64,000 bases of DNA, taken from the NCBI GenBank assembly GCA_963767005.1, contig CAVYCN010000018.1, positions 64,001 to 128,000 of the forward strand, in the 5' to 3' direction. This DNA is from an uncultured Actinomycetes bacterium. GTDB taxonomy: Bacteria > Actinomycetota > Thermoleophilia > UBA2241. Shown here piece after piece: positions 460 through 61,014 of the stretch (the first letter of the stretch is position 1; every line of letters starts with the position of its first letter). The notes beneath the pieces were generated by a model. It was given only the letters and a program-made list of their open reading frames with translations. It did not search any database and had not been told where the DNA came from. The position numbers and the translations under genes were made by a program.

Positions 460-780
460 GTGGCGAGCGATCCCCAACCCCTGCCCGCCGGACGCACCGC
501 GGCCTTCGACCTGCTAGCGGCCGACACCCGCGCCGGCACTCGCGTCCTGGTCGCTTGCCCCTCACGCTGCGTTCGGCGCCAGTACCTGCGCGGCATCGCC
601 AAGCGCGGCGGCGACATCGAGAAGGTCTCGTTTGTGATCGGCACCTCGTTCCGCGACGCGCCTTGCGCCCTTGCCAAGGACCTGCGGCGCCAGTTCGGAC
701 CGCGCTGTCGGGTGGTCGACGTACGCGAGCTCGGAAGGTCAGGCGGCGAAGGCGGTCGGCAGGCGAGCCATCATGACTGA
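460..780 (+). CDS. Hypothetical element protein
   Basis: 106 aa GTG-start ORF with GGAGG RBS; overlaps the helicase start. Confidence 0.55.
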   Translation: MASDPQPLPAGRTAAFDLLAADTRAGTRVLVACPSRCVRRQYLRGIAKRGGDIEKVSFVIGTSFRDAPCALAKDLRRQFGPRCRVVDVRELGRSGGEGGRQASHHD

Positions 781-2236
781 GCTGCTCGCCGACTTCGCGG
801 CCGAGGACGCACTCTGCGGCGCCGCCCTTTCGAACGAGGCCGCGGCGACCGCCTTCTGCGAGCTGGTCGATCCGATGGATCTCTACCAGGGCCCGCAGCG
901 CCAGGTGGCGGAGGCGATTCGCTTGCTGCACGGCCAAGGCGGCGGCCACGTCGATGCCGTGGTCGTAAGCGCCTACCTGGGCGACAAGGTCGATAAGGCG
1001 CTGGTCCACAGCCTGCCGGACCTGTGCCCGGCGGCCACCAACGTTGCGACCTACGCCGGCATCGTGAGCACCATGGCGCGCCGCCGACGCCTGCTGGCCC
1101 TCTCGCACCGCCTGACCGACCTCGCCACGGCCAACGGCAAGCCTTCGGACGGCCTCCTGGCCGAGGCCGAGCGGCTGACCGACGAGGCCCTAGGGGCAGA
1201 GCGCGCGAGAGATGGGGCGAGCGGCTCGGAGCTACAGAGACGCTTCGACGACTTGGTGCTCACCGGGCCGCAGTTCGCTTCGCGGACCCCGGAGCTGATT
1301 GACTTCATCGCTCCCCCTTACGTCGCTCGCGCCCACCTGCACGAGATCGTCGGCAAGCTGAAGCACGGCAAGACGCGCTTCTACAGCGATCTCGCCTACT
1401 CGGTGCTCAACGGCATCCCTTTCTTGAACCAACCGACCCAGCAGTCGGCGGTGATGTTTCTGATGGAGGACAGCGACGGCACGATGCGTCTCAACCTCGA
1501 GCGCGCCGGCATCCTCGAACACCCGGATCTCCACCTCATGAACATCAGTTGGCTGTTCCGCTCCGGTCTAGTCTGGCAAGAGGTCTGCAGGTGCGTCGGC
1601 GACTACGTAGCGCGCCACGGCATCAACCTGCTGTTCACCGACACCTTCTTGCGCTGGGCGGGTCTCACAGAGGGCCAGGAGAGCGACTCCGGGGCCTGCG
1701 CTCAGGCCCTGGCGCCCCTGGATGCGATCAGGCAGGAGACGGGCGCCGCCATCGTCGTCGTGCACCACGAGGGCAAGAAGCACGGCGGCGATACCTCCGA
1801 TGCGGGGCGCGGGTCGTCGGCGATCGGCGCCTTCATGGACTCCATCCTGGTCCTGCGTCGCGTGTCGGGCCAAGGCCCGAAGGCCGCCCGCCGGCGCAAG
1901 CTCGAGTACATCGGTCGGTTCGATGCCCCGGCCAACGTCGTAGTCGAGCTCGACGGCGGCTCGGGCCACTACCGCCTGATCGGCGATGCCCTCACCACCG
2001 AGACCGAGCAGGCCCGGCAGTTCGCCCTCGACGCCCTGCCCGAGCACGAGACGCGCGCCGTCACCGAGCGCTGGCTCTGCGACGAGAGCGGCATCGACAG
2101 CTCGACCATGGGGCGCGCCCTCAAGGCCCTCATGCGTGACGGCTTCGTCACCGGCAGGCTCGGCGCCGGCGGGGCCAGCTCCAAGGCTTTCGGCTACTGG
2201 CTACAGGCAGACCAACAGGCCCTCGGCGAGTCGTGA
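773..2236 (+). CDS. Replicative helicase: DnaB N-terminal-like domain + AAA_25/RepA-type ATPase + C-terminal wHTH
   Basis: N-terminus AAEDALCGAAL...NVATYAGIVSTMARRRRL; Walker A GKLKHGKT, Walker B LLFTDT, VVVHHEGK and GRGSSAIGAFMD (SF4 motifs); ATG at 773. Confidence 0.85.
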   Translation: MTELLADFAAEDALCGAALSNEAAATAFCELVDPMDLYQGPQRQVAEAIRLLHGQGGGHVDAVVVSAYLGDKVDKALVHSLPDLCPAATNVATYAGIVSTMARRRRLLALSHRLTDLATANGKPSDGLLAEAERLTDEALGAERARDGASGSELQRRFDDLVLTGPQFASRTPELIDFIAPPYVARAHLHEIVGKLKHGKTRFYSDLAYSVLNGIPFLNQPTQQSAVMFLMEDSDGTMRLNLERAGILEHPDLHLMNISWLFRSGLVWQEVCRCVGDYVARHGINLLFTDTFLRWAGLTEGQESDSGACAQALAPLDAIRQETGAAIVVVHHEGKKHGGDTSDAGRGSSAIGAFMDSILVLRRVSGQGPKAARRRKLEYIGRFDAPANVVVELDGGSGHYRLIGDALTTETEQARQFALDALPEHETRAVTERWLCDESGIDSSTMGRALKALMRDGFVTGRLGAGGASSKAFGYWLQADQQALGES

Positions 2237-2460
2237 ACAGATCCCTGAACAGGTTCTCGACCCCCAGGGCCTCAGCCGCTGCGCCCCGCGGACCTGTTCA
2301 CATCTCCTCTATAGGATGCGTATTGAACAGAACAGGTTCTCAGGCACGATTCGGTCGTCGACCTGTTCACCCTGCGACGGAAGGTCGCAGGGGGGTGAAC
2401 AGGGCTCCGAGAGCGGCCACCTGTTCACGGGAGAGGTTGAACAGTTCACTGAACAGTTCC
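2233..2460. repeat. Iteron array (TGAACAG/CTGTTCA in both orientations), putative replication origin
   Basis: Copies at about 2234, 2246, 2294, 2324, 2363, 2396, 2421, 2438 and 2450, directly after the helicase stop; central hairpin CCCTGCGAC-ggaag-GTCGCAGGG. Confidence 0.8.
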
Positions 2461-2479
2461 CCCTCCCCGGGCGGGCAGT

Positions 2480-2719
2480 GTGGGCGTCACGCTGGCAGCA
2501 TCCGCGCAATCGCGGGAGCGGTGGGGGTCCCGCTGGCGACCGTGCAGCGTGACGCGGCCAGGTTCGATATCAATCGAACCTGGCCGCGTCACGGGCCGCG
2601 ACGGCAAGACCTACCCGGCTCGCAAGAACGGCGTGTCGCGCGGCCGCGAGGCCACGGCCGAGCGCCGCGAGCGGCGAACGTTCGGGCCTCTACGCGCGCG
2701 CGCACGGGGCCGGCGGTGA
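2480..2719 (+). pseudogene. Frameshifted phage HTH protein fragment
   Basis: SIRAIAGAVGVPLATVQRD in one frame continues as EPGRVTGRDGKTYPARK in another, a combination I recognise from actinophage HTH proteins. Confidence 0.5.
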
Positions 2720-2723
2720 TGGC

Positions 2724-3089
2724 ATGACCGACCCGATACCCGGCTCCGACCTGGTCATGCGCCGGTGCTCGACCTGCCGTCGCGACCTTCCGCTCGAGAC
2801 CGGGTTCTACCGCTGCCGGCGGCGCACCGGCGGCCGGGAGTACATCTGCAAGGACTGCCAGCGGGCGCAGAAGCGCAGCCCGGCCGGCAGGGCGATCGCC
2901 CAGCGCTACCGCGCTGCGCACAAGGACCAGGCGCGCCTGTACCAGGCTGGCTATCGCGCCGGGCGGCGCCGGGCGGCGCGAGACGCCGCGGCGATCGCGG
3001 AGCTCACGCAGTTGCTCGAGCAGCTCGAGGGAGTTGTCAAGCGGTTGGCGCCGGGCCGTTCTCAGCCTCGAAACGGCTACCGTGCATGA
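2724..3089 (+). CDS. Zinc-finger (CxxC...CxxC) phage protein
   Basis: RRCSTCRRDLPLETGFYR...YICKDCQR resembles the zinc module often found N-terminal to phage HNH/EndoVII proteins; no nuclease domain seen. Confidence 0.65.
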   Translation: MTDPIPGSDLVMRRCSTCRRDLPLETGFYRCRRRTGGREYICKDCQRAQKRSPAGRAIAQRYRAAHKDQARLYQAGYRAGRRRAARDAAAIAELTQLLEQLEGVVKRLAPGRSQPRNGYRA

Positions 3090-3279
3090 CCCCCTGTCAT
3101 CCAACGACGCAGCGGCGGTCGGCGCCGGCGGGTTCGCCACGCCCACCGCGCGCCGGCCCCGGTGCGTCGAAAAGCGTAGCGACAAAAGCGACGGCGCCCG
3201 AAATCGCCGAACCAGGCGGCGACGGCGGGTCCAGACTTGACCACAGAAGTGCTCTGCAGCCCCGAAGGGACGTGAGCCG

Positions 3280-3477
3280 ATGACAGCCACCGCCGCGCTG
3301 ACTGTGACCGAGACCGCTAGGCGCCTCAACGTCTCGACCGCCCTCGTCTACCGACTTGTCCGCCGCGGTCAGCTGCCGGGCGCCGCGCGCGTCGGCCGCT
3401 CCTGGCGCATCGACGCGCGGCGCTTGGACGCCGCCCTGTTCGGGGCTCCCGCGGCAGACTCGAGGGCCGTCAAGTGA
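3280..3477 (+). CDS. Excisionase-family HTH protein
   Basis: LTVTETARRLNVSTALVYRLVRRGQLPGAARVGRSWRI, typical HTH_17 pattern. Confidence 0.85.
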   Translation: MTATAALTVTETARRLNVSTALVYRLVRRGQLPGAARVGRSWRIDARRLDAALFGAPAADSRAVK

Positions 3478-3663
3478 CAGACCGGCCGCCGACTCGCGCC
3501 CCGTCGTGAGCATCGCGGAGGCCGCCGCACACCTGGGCACGAGCGTTGACACCTGCGCGACCTCGTAAGGTGCGGCCGATTCGCGGACGCCTTGGACGCC
3601 CTGCTCTGGCGCCTCGCCGGCTGCGACGCGGACGAATTGCTACCAGACGACGAAGACGACTGA
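3474..3663 (+). pseudogene. Second excisionase-like HTH gene, two apparent 1-nt deletions
   Basis: Adding one C at about 3486 and one at about 3552 gives MTDRPADSRPVVSIAEAAAHLGTSVDTLRDLVRCGRF...; GTGA overlap with the upstream gene. Confidence 0.55.
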
Positions 3664-3692
3664 AACCCCGACCCCGACAGGAGAACCGACCC

Positions 3693-4630
3693 ATGAGTGA
3701 CACACCCTCGCCCTTCGCCCGCAACCTCGACCGGACCGACCCCTCGAACTTCGGCATCCCCCCGAACACCCCGACCAGCATCCCCGACACCACGATCGTC
3801 AGCGGCGCCAACGTGCAGTCGGCGCAGGCAACGGTCGCGAGCTACCGCACCATCGCCGAGAACCGCTGGGAGACGTTCCGCACGGCCCACGAGGCCGATC
3901 TCAGGACGGCCGGCGTGGCCGCCTGTTCGAGAACGTCGTGGCGGACGCGACGGCCATCTTCGACGCCTCGGACGGGCTGCTCACCACGGCACTGAGCGTC
4001 GCCACGAGCCGCTTGCTCTCAGCGGAATACGCAATGCAGAAGCTTCGCGACGCCCACACCACGGCGAGTGGTACGTGGCTGGCCGAGTTCGTCGCCTTCG
4101 ACGGCGATCTGGGCGCCTTCGTCGCGAGCCTCGCCAACGCGGCGTATCCGAAGCCGAGCGGCGACGAGGCGCTTCTGCGCCAAGAGGCCGCCACCATCCT
4201 GCACGCCGGCGACGCCGACCACCGGCCCGTCGATGCGCTTCGCAAGCTGGCCGGCGCCGAGCGCCGCGACCTCGCCGCGTTCGCGCTGAGTCCGTGGGCG
4301 TCCACCTGGGCCGGCACTCGCGGGGTGTCCGCGCCGGACCTGCAGGCCGTTCGCCTCGCGGCCATCGAGGCCGCGAAGGATCTCGGCGCCGAGGCTGAGC
4401 AGGCCGCGGCGCGCGCCTACGCCGACGCGATGGCTCTCCTGGGCGTCCGTCCGTGCATGGTCATCGCTGCGCAGGCCGCCGGCAACGTGGCACCGCTCGC
4501 AGCTGGGCTGGGGTTCAACGTCGACTACCCGGTCGGCAAGCAGTCGATCGACTTGCTCGCGTGGCGCGCTGGACCCGCCGACGCGCCGCCATCACGACGG
4601 TCTGAGGTCGCAGCATGCCGGAATCCGTGA
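3693..4630 (+). pseudogene. Hypothetical element protein (about 310 aa) split by a frameshift at about 3922
   Basis: AGGAG RBS and ATG at 3693 (MSDTPSPF...); adding one C joins it to ORF 3938..4630. Confidence 0.6.
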
Positions 4631-4632
4631 CA

Positions 4633-5090
4633 ATGAAGTGGCGCGGCGTCGAGGCGACGGCGGCGGAACGCGCTGGCGCTGCCGCGGCCTCACCCTCTGG
4701 GCCGAGCACGTGCTGCAACAGTCGGTCGAGATCGTGCCGCTGTTGGAGGGCACGCTAGAGCGCAGCGGCGCGGTCAGTCCAGCGAACGCCGAAAGCCTGA
4801 CGGCCGCCGTCTCCTACGACACGCCCTACGCGGTGCGCCAGCATGAGGACCTCACGTATCACTATCCGAACGGGCGCCAGGCGAAGTACCTCGAAACGCC
4901 GCTCAATGCGTCGGTCGACACGGGCAAGGCGTTAGTGGCCGAAGAGATCCACGCGGCGCTCACCGGCGGCCGGCTGCGCCCGTCCTATCGGCGGCCGAGG
5001 ACGCCTCGACCCCCGACGACAGCGGCGGCCCGGACGTGGGTGACATGGTCAGCGACGTGGCCAGCGTGGCGCAGGTCGTGGTCAACGTGA
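4633..5090 (+). pseudogene. Phage minor capsid/neck (HK97 gp10-like) protein, frameshift at about 4682
   Basis: MKWRG...RGLTLWAEHVLQQSVEIVPLLEGTLERSG...VSYDTPYAVRQHEDLTY...QAKYLETP matches the actinophage family pattern as I recall it. Confidence 0.7.
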
Positions 5091-8582: not shown

Positions 8583-9704
<1,122 letters not shown>

Positions 9705-32278: not shown

Positions 32279-32310
32279 GCGGCGGCGACGTCGCTTGCTG
32301 ACCGCCGCGA

Positions 32311-33714
32311 CTAGCGAATGACCGGACGGCGACCGGCGAGCCCCGCCCGGAATCGCTCGACGGCCGGCAGGTGCAGGTCGAGCAGGTCGGCGATGTGCGC
32401 CTTGGCCTCGAGCGGGCTCGGGTCGTCGTAGTAGCTCGCCTCGGTCTCGAAGATGCGTCCGAGGCGCAGCTCACCGCGCAGCTCGTGCATGGCGGCGTTG
32501 TCGGACAGGTCGCGCGGCGCGACCCCGAGCCGGTCGGCCACGTAGCGTTTGGCCTGCGTGATCCTCATGCCCTTCGCCATCTGCATCCGCGCCACCAGAT
32601 CTCCGGCGGCGCGCAGTCCGTTCATGCCGGAGGCGCACGAGTGGGCGACGTCCATACCGAACGAGTCGCCCGTGCCCACCTACAAGCCGTCCAGGCGGAG
32701 CACGTCGACGCAGGCGCGCGACACCCGCGAGACGGCGTCGACCGGCGCGAAGGCGGTCATCGGCACGCCGCCCACGCCCATGCCGACGTTCATGTGCACG
32801 GGTATCTCGGCGGCGGCCATGCAGGGCTTCACGAAGGTGAGGGCGCGAGCCACGTTCCAGGGCGTCGACCTGCTCGTGTTGGTGTTCACCGCCGGTCCGA
32901 ACACCGTCGCGCCGGCCTGCTGCACCACCGCGAGCTGACCCGCTGGCTTGAGCCCCGCCAGGCGCGTGCCGCGATACTCGAGCCGGCCGTGGGTGCCGAG
33001 CACGATCTCGGCCGCCATGCCGACCATGATGCCCAGGTCGGGGTGCCGCTCCCGCAAGATCTCGACGGTGCGCAGGGTGGCCAGCAGGTCGGCGTCGCCG
33101 GCGGCGCCGGCGGTGTCGAAGTTCACACCGTCGGCGCCGGCGTCCCACATGGCCTCGGCCACGTAGACCATGTCGGCCACGGCAAGCTCGACCGCCTCTT
33201 CCTGGGCGGCGCGCGCCTCGTCGATGCGCACCTCGGGCAGGAGCTGCGCCCAGTTGCCGCAGGGTCCGTCGGGTTCCGAGTACCGGCCCAGGTCGGGCTG
33301 GGCGCCGTAGTGCACCGGCACCGTCAGCCGCTCCTGGGCCTCCTTCATGTACTGCTGCTCGAAGGGGACAACGGGCTTGACCGCCTTGTAGGAGTAGTCG
33401 ATGTGGAACAGCTCGACGCTGTCGTGGGCGAGCACCTGCTCGTAGGCGTACAGGGCGTCGACCCTGCTGCCGAGCTGCGGCGTGCCGGTGCCATCCTTTG
33501 AGAGCACGACCTCGTCGCCCACATCGACCGCCGTGAAGCGCGCCTGCGACGCGAAGATGTCGAGCAGATGGTCGAGCTCACTGTCGTCGAGCGACGCCAG
33601 CTTGCCGCGGGTGGCGGCGGCCTGCGTGCCCGCGTCGAGCTCGACGCGGATGGCGCTCCGGGTCGCCTCGACGAGCGACCCGTCGCCCATCCGCATCGGG
33701 ACCTGCCGTTCCAT
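32311..33714 (-). CDS. mtbB: Dimethylamine:corrinoid methyltransferase family, pyrrolysine (TAG at 32680-32682, codon 345); paralog 1, 467 aa
   Basis: RMGDG, DYSYKAVK and [14 protein letters not shown], then RLDGL*VGTGD...[17 protein letters not shown]; two ORFs abut in frame across a single TAG. Confidence 0.9.
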
Positions 33715-33802
33715 CAACGTCACCTCCGCGGCGCCGTCGCCCCCCTGGCGTCGGTCCCGGGGATGCTATCGCAGTCGCAGGCAAAGCGGCAACGCGCCTT
33801 CA

Positions 33803-33859
33803 GGCAAGAAGCGAGGCGGGGGCGGCGCCTTCGGCGCCGCCCCCGCCTCGCTTCTTGCC
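33803..33859. terminator. 27-bp-stem hairpin downstream of mtbB paralog 2
   Basis: GGCAAGAAGCGAGGCGGGGGCGGCGCC-ttc-GGCGCCGCCCCCGCCTCGCTTCTTGCC. Confidence 0.75.
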
Positions 33860-33890
33860 GTCGCCGGTCTGACCGCCGCGCCGCGGCCTT

Positions 33891-35276
33891 TTACAACCCG
33901 ACGCGCTGCTTGAAGCGCTCGACGCTGTTGATCGTGATGTCGAGCGCCTTGGCGATGTTGAACTTGGCCTCGATCATGCCGGCGTCGCCGGGACGCACCG
34001 CGGAGGTGTGAGGCAGGCACCCCAGCCCCTTCTCGATGCGGATCTGCTCCATGGCGATCGGGTCGGACAGGTCGCGTACGCCGCAGCCGAGCTTGTCGGC
34101 GACGTAGGCCTTGGCTTCACTCAGGCGCATCCTTCGGGTCATCTGCATGCGTGCCACGAGATCTCCCGCGGTCCGCATTCCGCCCATGCCCGAAGCCTGC
34201 GAATGGGCAGACTCCATGCCCATGGCATCGCCCGTGCCCACCTAGTAGCCGTCGATCTTGAGGATCTCGACGAAGGCCTTGGAGGCACGCGACGTGGCAT
34301 CGGCCGGCGGATAGACGCAGGTCGGCACGCCGCCCACACCCATGCCCACGTTGACGTGCACCGGGATCTCGGCGATCTCGGCGGCCGGCTTGATGAAGGT
34401 CATCGCCCGGGCGATGTTCCAGGCGGTCGACTTGCCTGTGTTGATGTTGACGGCGGGGCCGTAGATCGAGGCGCCCGCGGCCTGCACCATGCGCACCTGG
34501 TCCTTGGGCCACATGCCGGCCAGACGCTCGCCGTCGAACTCGAGCTGGCCGTGCATGCCGAGCACGAACTCGCTCGCCATGCCGATCTCGATGCCGAGCC
34601 ACGGGTATCTGTCGCGTAGCATGCGGCAAGCGGTGAGGCCGGCGAGAAAGTCGGCGTCGCCGGCCGCGCCGGTCGTGTCCATGTCGATGCCGTCGGCGCC
34701 GGCTTCGATCATGTGGTCGGCGACGAAGTTGATGTCGTTGACCAGCATGTCGCAGGCCTCGAGCTGCGCGGCGCGGGCCTCGTCGACCTTCATGAGCGGC
34801 AGCAGCTCGGACCAGTTGTCGATCGGCCCGTCGGGCTTCGAGTAGCGGCCGAGGTCGGGCATCGCCCCGTACTGCACCGGGTTCGTGCAGAGCATCTGGG
34901 CGATCTTCATCGACTGGCCCTCGTGGGCCACGTTGGTCTTGACCGCCTTGTACGAGTAGTCGATCTGCCAGAGCTCGATCATGTCGATGCCGACGACCTG
35001 CTCGTAGGTCTGCAGGTCCTGCACCCGGTTACCGATGTGCTTGGTGCCGGTGCCGTCGTTGCTCATGACGACCTCGTCGCCGATGTCGACGGCGGTGAAG
35101 CGGGCCGACGAGGCATAGATGTCGAGCAGGTGGTCGAGCTCGTCCTGATTGAGCGGGTCGACCTTGGCCCGTTTGGCGGCCTGTTGCGTGCCGTCCTCGA
35201 GGTCGGCCTTGATCTCGGAGCGCGTCATATCGACGAGCGCGCCGTCTCCCATGCGCGTTGCGATCTTGGGTTCCAA
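33891..35276 (-). CDS. mtbB: Dimethylamine:corrinoid methyltransferase family, pyrrolysine (TAG at 34242-34244, codon 345); paralog 2, 461 aa
   Basis: TTG start after GGAGGT (MEPKIATRMGDG); KIDGY*VGTGDAMGM...[17 protein letters not shown]; TAA terminal stop. Confidence 0.9.
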
Positions 35277-35572
35277 GCGCATCACCTCCACGTGCGCACG
35301 TTCGCGGGGACCGGCCGCCGGTAGCGACCGGGACCGGATCGGACTCGGATGTGCCCCGGGTCTGGGTCACGAAGGGCCACACCGGGAGCCGTCGGCCCAT
35401 GGTATATCGGCCCTCCCACCGTCCGCCACCCGGGGCACCCAGGGGCCCGAGCGCGGCACGCCGAGACCGGGACGCTCGCTCTCACCCCGAGTCGCGCCGC
35501 ATCACCCCCCCTCGCGGCGGTACGACCAGGGGCGCGGCATCACCCCACGGCGCGCCGGCGTCTCGCGCATGC

Positions 35573-36428: not shown

Positions 36429-36606
36429 GGGAGGTACGGGAGTGTGGGTGTGTGTGGTGCCATCATGCCATCACTTTCTGCTGGCATGATGGCACCACAC
36501 ACCCTCGGGGTCCCGCGGCTCGAGTGGGCCACGGGCTCACATTTGACGCGGGAACGAGGTCACGGAGCGCAGCTGGAGCGGTTGACGAAGGAGTGGGTGC
36601 GGTCAC

Positions 36607-37888: not shown

Positions 37889-37930
37889 CGGCGGTGGGCG
37901 GGCGCCCATACGGGCGCCCGCCCACCGCCG
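37889..37930. terminator. Hairpin downstream of mtbB paralog 3
   Basis: CGGCGGTGGGCGGGCGCCC-atac-GGGCGCCCGCCCACCGCCG. Confidence 0.75.
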
Positions 37931-37933
37931 CGA

Positions 37934-39340
37934 TCAGCGTCCGACGGGGTGCTTGCGGCCGGCCATCTCGCGGAAGCGCTCCACGCAGTTGACCGGCACG
38001 TCGAGCACGGCCGCGATGTTGAACTTGGCCTCGATCCCCATGGGGTCGCCGACGTCGGTGATCTCGCCCGACTCGAGGATGCCGCCGAGGCCGTGCTCCT
38101 TGCGCACGTCGAGCATGACCGTCGGGTCGGAGAGGTCGATCGTCGAGACGCCCAGCCGGTCGGCCACGTACCGCTTGGCCTCGACGAGCCGCATCCCTCG
38201 GGTGATCTGCATCCGGGCCACCAGATCTCCAGCAGTCCGGATCCCGCCCATCCCCGAGGCGACGCCGTGGCTCACAGCCTGGCCGTACACGTCGCCCGCG
38301 CCCACCTACAAGCCATCCAGGCGCAGGATGTCGACCGCGGCGCGCGAGGCCCGGCAGGTGGCGTCGCCGGCCGGGGTGACGTGCATCGGCACGCCGCCCA
38401 CCCCCATGCCGCCGTTCAGGTGCACCGGCACGGTCGCCTCGTCGCAGCACGGCTTGGCGATGGTCAGCGTGCGCGCCACGTTCCAGGCGATCGACCTGCC
38501 GGTGTTCACGTTGATCGCCGGGCCGAAGATGGTGACGCCGGCCTTGGCGGCCACCTTCATCTGCTCGCGCGGCCACAGGCCGGCGAGGCGCACGCCGTCG
38601 TACTCGAGCTCGCCGTGCATGCCGAGCACGAACTCGCCGGCCATGCCGATCTGGATGCCCACCGTCGGGTGCGCGGCGCGGATGCGCTCGACCGCCTTGA
38701 GCGTGGCGAGGAAGTCGGCGTCGCCGGCCGCGCCGGCCGTGTCGAGGTCGATGAACTCGGCGCCGGCTTCGATCAGCTCGTCGGCCACGAAGCAGATGTC
38801 GTCGACCGCGAGCTCGACCGCCTGTTCCTGGGCCGCGCGAGCTTCGTCGATGCGACCGAGCGGCAGAAGCTGCGACCAGTTCGGCACCGGACCGTCGGGC
38901 ACGGTGTAGAGGCCGAGGTCGGGCATGGCGCCGTAGCCGAGCGGCGCCGTGGTCACGAACTGCGCCTGGCGCATCATGACCTGCTCGAAGGCCGTGACCC
39001 CCTTCGCCGGCTTGTAGGAGTAGTCGTGGTGGTAGAGCTCGAGCGAGTCGGCGCAGAGGTACTGCTCGTAGTACTGCAGGTCGTTGATGCGCGTGCCGAG
39101 GTCCTGGCTGCCGCAGCCGTCGAAGGACAGCACGACCTCGTCGCCGATGTCGACGCCGGTGAACCGGCTGTTCGAGCAGAAGATGTCGGCGAGGTGGGCG
39201 AGCTCGTCGGCGCCCAGCTCGGGACTCTTGCTGCGCTTGGCGCCGGCCTGCGTGCCGGCCTCGAGGTCGGCGCGGATCTGCGACGGCGTCATCTCGACGA
39301 GCGCGCCGTCGCCCATGCGCGTGCGGATCGTGGGTTCCAT
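37934..39340 (-). CDS. mtbB: Dimethylamine:corrinoid methyltransferase family, pyrrolysine (TAG at 38306-38308, codon 345); paralog 3, 468 aa
   Basis: [12 protein letters not shown]; [13 protein letters not shown]...[17 protein letters not shown]; TGA terminal stop. Confidence 0.9.
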
Positions 39341-60396: not shown

Positions 60397-61014
60397 CTAC
60401 CTCGCCACGATCACTCTGGCCGGCCGCAGCAGGCGGCCGTGCAGCAGATACCCCGCCTCGAGCACGGCCACGATCGCACCCTCCGAGTACTCGTCGGACT
60501 CCTGGGCGACGACCGCCTCGTGGACGTTGGGGTCGAACGGCAGGCCGGGGGCGGCCGGCACCTCATCGAGGCCGTGACCCTCGAGCACCGAGCGCAACTG
60601 CCCGGAGACGATCTCCACGCCCTTGATCAGTTGCCCTTCCTCGTGCTGCTCCGCCGCCTCGAGCGTGCGCGCCATGTTGTCGAGCACCGGCAGCAGCGAC
60701 TCGATCACGCCCTCGCCGGCGCGCAGCACCAGGGCCTCGTTGTCGCGCTGCACGCGCTTGCGATAGTTCTCGAACTCGGCCTTGAGGCGCTGCAGGTGGT
60801 CGAGGTACTGGTCGCGCTCCGCGGTGGCGCGCGCGAGCTCGACGGCCGACGGCGCGGCGCCGGCTTCGGTCGGGACCGCGGCCGCCGCGGCGGCTTCGGC
60901 GCCGGCGCTCGCGGGCGCGGCTGCCGCCGGGTCGGGCGCCCCCGGGCGAGCGCCGGCGTCGTCGCCGCGCTTCGCCTGGGTGCGCCGATCCTTCTTGTCG
61001 TGCGGAGTCGTCAT
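60397..61014 (-). CDS. grpE: Nucleotide exchange factor GrpE
   Basis: [24 protein letters not shown] and GY...LRPARV; TAG stop. Confidence 0.96.

Follow-up and report, generated by a model that had tools for sequence, protein, structure and literature searches.

The window analysed here is a 64,000-nucleotide stretch (C18:64001-128000) of a genome of 3.44 Mb and 71% GC, whose nearest relatives carry the titles Thermoleophilia, Actinomycetes or Actinomycetota. It contains three mtbB paralogs (Table 1), all of which match Pfam Dimeth_Pyl across an internal TAG (E ~1e-162 to 1e-167). The first-pass annotation had singled out paralog 1 as a gene in which TAG stands both within the coding sequence, at codon 345, and at its end (32311-32313), and had given TAA and TGA as the ends of paralogs 2 and 3. 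The sequence confirms these assignments, and the internal TAG is present in paralogs 2 and 3 as well.

Table 1. Features of the window (positions count from its first letter)
Feature	Position	Strand	Remarks
mtbB paralog 1, dimethylamine methyltransferase	32311..33714	-	467 aa with read-through of the internal UAG; ATG at 33714
Paralog 1 internal TAG, codon 345, predicted pyrrolysine site	32680..32682	-	same column in all 8 mtbB paralogs
Paralog 1 rare Leu codon TTG	32683..32685	-	immediately 5' of the internal TAG
Paralog 1 predicted 11-bp hairpin	32588..32613	-	AGAU tetraloop at 32599-32602 (+78 nt from the UAG); Rfam PYLIS_2 draws this hairpin too
Paralog 1 terminal TAG, true stop	32311..32313	-	preceded by CGC; no AGRN hairpin downstream
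mtbB paralog 2	33891..35291	-	ends TAA (33891-33893); internal TAG 34242-34244, preceded by Tyr TAC
Paralog 2 predicted hairpin	34154..34171	-	AGAU loop 34161-34164
mtbB paralog 3	37934..39340	-	ends TGA (37934-37936); internal TAG 38306-38308, TTG before it (38309-38311)
Paralog 3 predicted hairpin	38218..38235	-	AGAU loop 38225-38228
RpoD-like sigma factor	8583..9704	-	TAG end at conserved C-terminus (stop-use comparison)
grpE	60397..61014	-	TAG end at conserved C-terminus (stop-use comparison)

The ten bases that follow the stops of paralogs 1 (TAG) and 3 (TGA) are the same (32301-32310 and 37924-37933), and the two proteins are only ~58% identical. Long, near-perfect inverted repeats lie between genes at 36430-36522 and 33773-33865; they gave weak matches to miRNA models, below the gathering score, and are probably terminators or repeats. 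Phage-like ORFs (DnaB/AAA helicase-like, and one weak minor-capsid match) occupy the left end of the window (671-5090).

Pyrrolysine machinery and the two uses of TAG

A tRNA-Pyl(CUA) is encoded at C3:242986-243058 of this genome, and PylSc, PylSn, PylB, PylC, PylD and RF1 all score above the NCBIfam cut-offs (pyl profiles TIGR02367, TIGR03912, TIGR03910, TIGR03909 and TIGR03911). The gene set of a Pyl-using organism (pylT, pylSc plus pylSn, pylB, pylC, pylD) is thus present; in the family, pylSn was detected in 57 of 61 genomes. An in-frame TAG occupies the Pyl column in 8 mtbB, 7 mttB and 1 mtmB genes, and the internal UAGs of these 16 methylamine-methyltransferase genes are predicted pyrrolysine codons. 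The methyltransferase set is large, with 41 MttB-family matches (7 with the TAG), 8 mtbB and 4 MtmB-family matches (3 without the TAG). Within the family, 34 of 36 genomes gave mtbB matches, compared to 1 of 400 genomes drawn across the phylum.

Genes were called with a home-made hexamer gene caller, which gave 2999 genes in this genome. TAG ends 854 of the 2684 confident non-Pyl gene calls (~32%) and, since Pyl machinery and RF1 are both present, the earlier proposal that amber is ambiguous in this genome is supported. Within the window, where at least ten further TAG-ending genes had been claimed, TAG closes 14 of the 53 genes that lie wholly inside, paralog 1 included, some of these being short, uncertain calls. 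As the annotation had also pointed out, the list includes RpoD (...REFLD*) and GrpE (...VIVAR*), which stop at TAG where the NCBIfam models end. TAG shows no depletion as a stop and no backup stops: in-frame TAA or TGA occurs within ten codons after TAG in 8.8% of cases, compared to 6.7% and 8.3% in the other frames. In sampled regions of relatives, called with the gene caller trained on this genome, TAG ends 66/267 genes (24.7%) in a Pyl+ relative, 67/233 (28.8%) in a same-genus genome where pylSn, mtbB and Pyl-type mttB were not found, and 36/165 and 37/151 in two other families.

One caveat attached to the first observation was that the terminal TAG of paralog 1 could be a sequencing error. 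This did not hold up: each of two 151-nt records, taken from two unrelated public runs, covers it with no mismatch (these runs, which contain at most 0.21 of the sampled words, were used for the terminal TAG only and not for habitat or expression). Moreover, in the seven closest orthologs of paralog 1 (81-92% identical) the gene ends no more than a few codons from this TAG, with TAG in 3, TGA in 3 and TAA in 1. Read-through of the terminal TAG would add 124 codons running antisense into an aldolase gene. Error and read-through were both rejected on the run records, the ortholog ends and the stop statistics and, judged from these sequences, the terminal TAG is a real stop. TAG stands at both the Pyl column and the end in 4 of the 16 Pyl genes here and in 66 of the 252 homologs whose end is visible. 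Since about a third of the genes end in TAG, double use within one gene is the chance expectation, and paralog 1 is ordinary, not special, for this genome.

Feedback through TAG-ending pyl genes was also considered and rejected: in this genome pylSc, pylSn and pylC have TAG stops, but in relatives the stops are mixed. The genome moreover carries tRNA-Sec, SelA-like and SelB genes, together with likely selenoprotein genes for selD and a peroxiredoxin (C4:372038 and C12:109784) that have an in-frame TGA and hairpins downstream, and thus appears to use both Sec and Pyl. A candidate Sec codon at a 'TGA' of an MttB gene was discarded, the TGA being the stop of the upstream gene.

Sequence context of the pyrrolysine UAGs

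When the codon surprise was computed position by position in 66 mtbB, 36 mttB and 6 mtmB sequences of the family, it peaked at the codon before the UAG (-1) and at one spot downstream. In this genome, Leu at -1 of a Pyl UAG is encoded by TTG or TTA in 12/12 cases, while these codons make up 2.2% of internal Leu codons and 1/64 of those before a terminal TAG. Among pooled distinct homologs, the Leu before the Pyl UAG is UUG or UUA in 205/210. The preference is kept in a low-GC set, where UUR precedes the Pyl UAG in 32/32 cases, compared to 149/442 elsewhere in the same genes. At a conserved Leu-TAG gene end beside pylSn, CUN was used in 23 of 25 copies. Where the -1 residue is other than Leu, the codons are mixed. 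Restriction-site or CTAG avoidance was rejected as the cause of the UUR codon, because CTG and CTC precede 60 of the 64 terminal Leu-TAGs.

The downstream rare codons are GGA at +26 in 65/66 mtbB and TTG-GCA at +23/+24 in mttB. They are predicted to form a hairpin whose A-G-purine-N loop lies at +78 nt (mtbB), +72 nt (mttB) and +114 nt (mtmB). The hairpin rule asked for an AG[AG]N loop with a closing pair, 5 or more pairs out of 6, and a position 60-125 nt downstream (55-125 nt for the sets fetched later). A hairpin obeying it follows 16/16 Pyl UAGs of this genome (mtbB, mttB and mtmB), a count that is partly circular, since this genome and its family had supplied the rule. After non-Pyl stops of the same genome it was seen for TAG in 55/854, TGA in 100/1714 and TAA in 7/116, and at 5.4% of 20000 random coding positions; its frequency after terminal TAGs is background. 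Note that, with ~6% of true stop TAGs followed by a chance hairpin, the hairpin alone cannot be a strict switch.

Across the family, 106 of 108 sequences have the hairpin, the suspect L100 among them. This contig sits in a genome labelled Thorarchaeota, with 70% GC around the TAG, a frameshifted mtbB and a context of Thermoleophilia type, and looks mis-binned. Without it, the pooled homologs, which are not independent of one another, have the hairpin in 242/261. In sets fetched after the rule had been fixed, it was found in 89/89 metagenome mtbB and 27/31 Bacillota mtbB; in mttB it was found in 15/19 from metagenome loci plus Bacillota mtmB loci (the source also of the 89 mtbB) and in 6/11 from Bacillota, and in mtmB in 4/9 from Bacillota. 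The Bacillota mtbB and mttB counts leave out the rows of G044, and the metagenome loci span 45-72% GC and overlap the family. As controls, non-Pyl homologs have the hairpin in 0/37 (mttB) and 1/23 (mtmB), and two non-Pyl MttB homologs encode the same LAALAGAN peptide with ordinary codons. When the same peptide was kept and synonymous codons were resampled from the same genes, the hairpin appeared in 2-7% (Thermoleophilia) or 16-22% (low-GC set) of cases, showing that it is maintained by synonymous-codon choice.

Covariation was analysed in 182 mtbB sequences over +1 to +130, where the top three column pairs by APC-corrected mutual information (MI) are all hairpin pairs. Pair 72:87 varies among C-G, U-A, G-C, U-G and A-U; within the window, the third hairpin pair is G-C in paralog 2 and C-G in paralog 1. 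In an alignment of the 3 window segments and 115 of 154 distinct locus segments, 93.2% of the cells are paired, with 117 double changes compared to 31.7 in shuffles (0/500), while slid controls pair in 23-46% of cells. Among 91 independent tip pairs, 72:87 remains paired in 23 of 31 changes, 12 of them compensatory; the controls gave a mean of 0.19 and maxima of 0.46 and 4. Wobble cells comprise 68 G-U and 3 A-C, an excess that points to RNA on the mRNA strand. Taken together, a selected RNA structure in mtbB is well supported by these alignments.

For mttB, 46 segments gave 89.1% pairing and 11 double changes (0/500 shuffles), with independent tip pairs too few for support (2-4 changes per pair, 1 kept); the case for the mttB hairpin rests on the rare codons and the non-Pyl controls. 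In mtmB the top MI pair falls in the hairpin, in a set of only 15 sequences. The predicted minimum-energy fold contains the hairpin in 5 of 5 Pyl segments folded; whole-region folding z-scores are modest (-1.0 to -2.3) and carry little weight. Other conserved rare codons lie at +6, +11, +21, +31 and +33 in mttB and at +32, +41, +45 and +46 in mtmB, and those around +16 to +54 and +91 to +99 nt in mttB and +94 to +150 nt in mtmB suggest additional structure near the hairpin.

A signature scan of this genome returned 12 of the 16 known Pyl sites and 1 other, with CCG at -1. A coding-score scan for more Pyl genes listed 47 TAG sites and was insensitive, because only 5 of the 16 known sites were recovered; beyond the methyltransferases it gave one recognised in-gene TAG, in an ABC peptide-binding protein gene (C13:18131, codon 286, coding sequence on both sides). 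The homologs of this protein (76-77% identical) have no stop there, and the gene has neither the UUR codon nor a hairpin at 60-125 nt. Its TAG may have arisen by a recent nonsense mutation or an error of assembly, or may be read through without a mark.

Possible readings of the signature

Of the mechanisms offered at first pass, context-dependent Pyl insertion is favoured on sequence evidence, the two-part signature being found on Pyl UAGs and absent from stop UAGs; substrate induction and plain competition with RF1 may operate besides it. We lean slightly towards the reading that the UUR codon and the AGRN hairpin 72-114 nt downstream bias decoding to Pyl, with RF1 terminating at the UAGs that lack this mark. 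The hairpin would fold ahead of a ribosome paused at the UAG, and its loop would be bound by a partner that favours delivery of Pyl-tRNA or delays RF1. The fixed loop on a variable stem suggests such a binding partner, for which one candidate would be the free-standing bacterial PylSn, described in the available text of PMC2933860 as a separate tRNA-binding protein. The UUR codon could exert its effect via the tRNA in the P site or via the nearby mRNA context, and the whole mark may be non-essential and might merely raise efficiency. A wider proposal, which we put forward only tentatively, is that a UUR codon with an AGRN hairpin at 70-115 nt forms a bacteria-specific Pyl signal shared by the three families, with three convergent origins, read in trans (possibly by PylSn) and letting a third of the genes keep UAG as their stop.

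In the search for a reader, one SelB was found among the called proteins, and no second SelB, stand-alone SelB C-terminal domain or EF-Pyl; the phmmer search for SelB paralogs also missed EF-Tu, and the called protein set may thus be incomplete. A reader of a kind unrelated to SelB may exist. No extra gene is common to the pyl clusters of both phyla in 17 regions. Next to pylSn, 29 of the 30 family loci carry a gene for a 292-aa radical SAM protein (C3:239185-240063 here), which lies tail to tail with pylSn at the loci checked; its stop codon is TAG in 25 of 30 copies, among them the one in this genome. It was rejected as the reader since its distribution in the class does not follow that of the pyl genes: 12 of 17 genomes of family f4 have it, most of these with no mtbB as far as searched, and searches gave no copy in G044, G024, G031, G033 and G069, the first four of which have pylSn above the cut-off. 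Three anticodon-loop bases of tRNA-Pyl are complementary to the AGR in the hairpin loop, and the closing base and loop together spell UAG in most mtmB copies; docking of tRNA-Pyl on the loop in the manner of a T-box is a speculative possibility. Internal re-initiation at the SD-like loop was discarded, as no start codon lies at a constant spacing across the families.

The covariation and specificity evidence is equally compatible with a selected RNA element that steers the fate of the mRNA and not its decoding. Such a hairpin would form on ribosome-free mRNA behind a stalled or terminated ribosome, where it would protect the operon's 3' portion against decay or Rho polarity, or tag the transcript for decay or repression under a shortage of pyrrolysine. 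Its position well past the ribosome footprint and its variable distance are in line with this, and polarity would matter because mttB and corrinoid genes follow the Pyl genes and are coupled to them. We nevertheless consider this account, the main rival, unlikely: it leaves the UUR codon directly 5' of the UAG unexplained, and a loop so strictly the same in three unrelated families suggests a single reader linked to the UAG and not general stability.

It is less likely still that Pyl-tRNA simply competes with RF1 at every UAG, perhaps only under methylamine induction, and that the signature adds little. Competition of this kind has been modelled for Methanosarcina acetivorans, where UAG has a dual meaning, and the available text of PMC12626013 (2025) states that no targeted-insertion mechanism is known in any Pyl organism; the part of bioRxiv 10.1101/2024.09.30.615893 available cites a bacterium that switches its Pyl system off when the substrate is lacking, and some bacterial Pyl genes have no hairpin. 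Against it stand the ~850 genes that end in TAG with no backup stops and no depletion compared to relatives, the methyltransferases, which are needed under Pyl-rich conditions and end in TAG at about the genome rate (the 66/252 given above), and the strong synonymous-site selection at the Pyl UAG. That the signature reflects no more than conserved protein sequence, shared ancestry or the avoidance of motifs in the DNA, or that one of the two TAGs is an error, we regard as very improbable and already largely refuted. The flanking peptides are indeed conserved and the homologs related, but the three families are unrelated, synonymous resampling seldom restores the hairpin, CTG TAG and CTC TAG are normal terminal contexts in the genome as well as at the conserved Leu-TAG end, compensatory and G-U changes are seen, and the terminal TAG was confirmed in two runs.

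Note that effects on decoding, effects on mRNA fate and competition with RF1 are not mutually exclusive. As a means of telling a Pyl UAG from a stop UAG, the signature, a six-base-pair hairpin plus one synonymous codon, is in our view a strong candidate for the pyrrolysine signal that has been missing in bacteria. If it acts on decoding, it would explain how bacteria tolerate a high use of TAG as stop, would provide a filter for predicting true Pyl genes, and would offer a route to site-selective amber suppression in genetic-code expansion.

Comparison with known systems

The closest described element is Rfam PYLIS_2 (RF02509, mtbB), for which the window genes score 73.3, 54.8 and 50.6 compared to a gathering score of 36, a score that also rewards conserved coding sequence. 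Its consensus already draws a hairpin at this place, with the loop aGAc. It differs in being a computational prediction for a single family, mostly from methanogens with a varying loop, and ties no loop motif to UAG discrimination; the first hairpin of PYLIS_2, proximal to the UAG, has several non-standard pairs in our alignments, and 0 of the 3 top covarying pairs fall within it. In the available text of PMC3639795 (Have et al. 2013, the source of PYLIS_2), the structures differ between families and none is given for mttB. Rfam PYLIS_3 (RF02510, mttB) is scored at 68.1 and 54.7 by mttB genes here (gathering score 38), and its drawn structure has no AGGN hairpin at +72. For PYLIS_1 (RF01982, mtmB), the mtmB gene scores 46.1, below the cut-off of 70, and the model spans only 100 nt and cannot reach the mtmB hairpin at +114.

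For archaea the comparison rests on a published supplement, because the searches of 251 Asgard genomes (E<=1e-100) and of viral contigs gave no Pyl genes with the TAG. In the portion of the PMC3639795 supplement available, scored by eye, sequences of methanogens, whose TAG use is low (PMC12626013), have the hairpin in 4/16 mtbB and 0/10 mttB, and loop A is kept in 6/16 methanogen mtbB, compared to 179/182 in the mtbB set analysed here. The bacterial sequences of the same supplement have it in 2/2 mtbB and 3/8 mttB, with Desulfitobacterium mttB lacking the hairpin. The predicted hairpin element is thus largely bacterial, and not universal in bacteria.

A likeness also exists to the bacterial SECIS/SelB system, in which a short hairpin in the coding sequence lies 3' of a stop with a dual meaning and has G at the second loop position. 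The apical loop of bacterial SECIS elements lies ~16-37 nt after the UGA and contains G-U. The candidate SECIS loops of this genome are AGUU (peroxiredoxin) and CGUGU (selD). The Pyl hairpin differs from these in following a UAG, in having A or G and not U as the third loop base, and in its loop distance of 72, 78 or 114 nt, compared to 17 nt in the peroxiredoxin SECIS here.

The dual use of UAG first noticed in paralog 1 is a correct observation that was already known for Pyl bacteria and methanogens, and is in print in the available parts of PMC12626013, PMC1976440 and bioRxiv 10.1101/2024.09.30.615893. Peat Actinobacteriota express Pyl-type mttB and mtbB, according to the accessible portion of PMC10805028. 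The available text of PMC1976440 argues that bacteria should need a cis signal and reports that no common structure was found, while Pyl insertion in the absence of any PYLIS is described in the corresponding parts of PMC2933860 and bioRxiv 10.1101/2024.09.30.615893. What is accessible of PMC13663744 notes transcript-specific pausing at UAG and has no mention of PYLIS, nor has the accessible text of PMC8318568. In a literature search with most subscription papers outside its scope, we found no report of an AGRN hairpin common to all three families.

The M. acetivorans system, as presented in the available text of PMC12626013 and PMC13663744, resembles the present one in that UAG serves as stop and as Pyl codon in one genome. 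The model given there takes equal read-through at all UAGs, and TAG use in Pyl+ archaea has a median of 5% and a range of 1-27% (PMC12626013, same text); here, in contrast, TAG use is ~32% and the Pyl UAGs are marked. The archaea with genetic code 34, as far as described in the accessible text of bioRxiv 10.1101/2024.09.30.615893, share with this genome a high TAG frequency together with pyl genes. In them TAG is sense genome-wide, whereas here conserved proteins end at TAG (RpoD, GrpE and PylSc do so at the model ends), orthologous gene ends swap among TAG, TGA and TAA, an RF1 with PVT and GGQ motifs is present, and a conserved in-frame TAG is found in only 16 methyltransferase genes. What is new here is the difference in context between Pyl and stop UAGs, and a predicted hairpin common to mtbB, mttB and mtmB.
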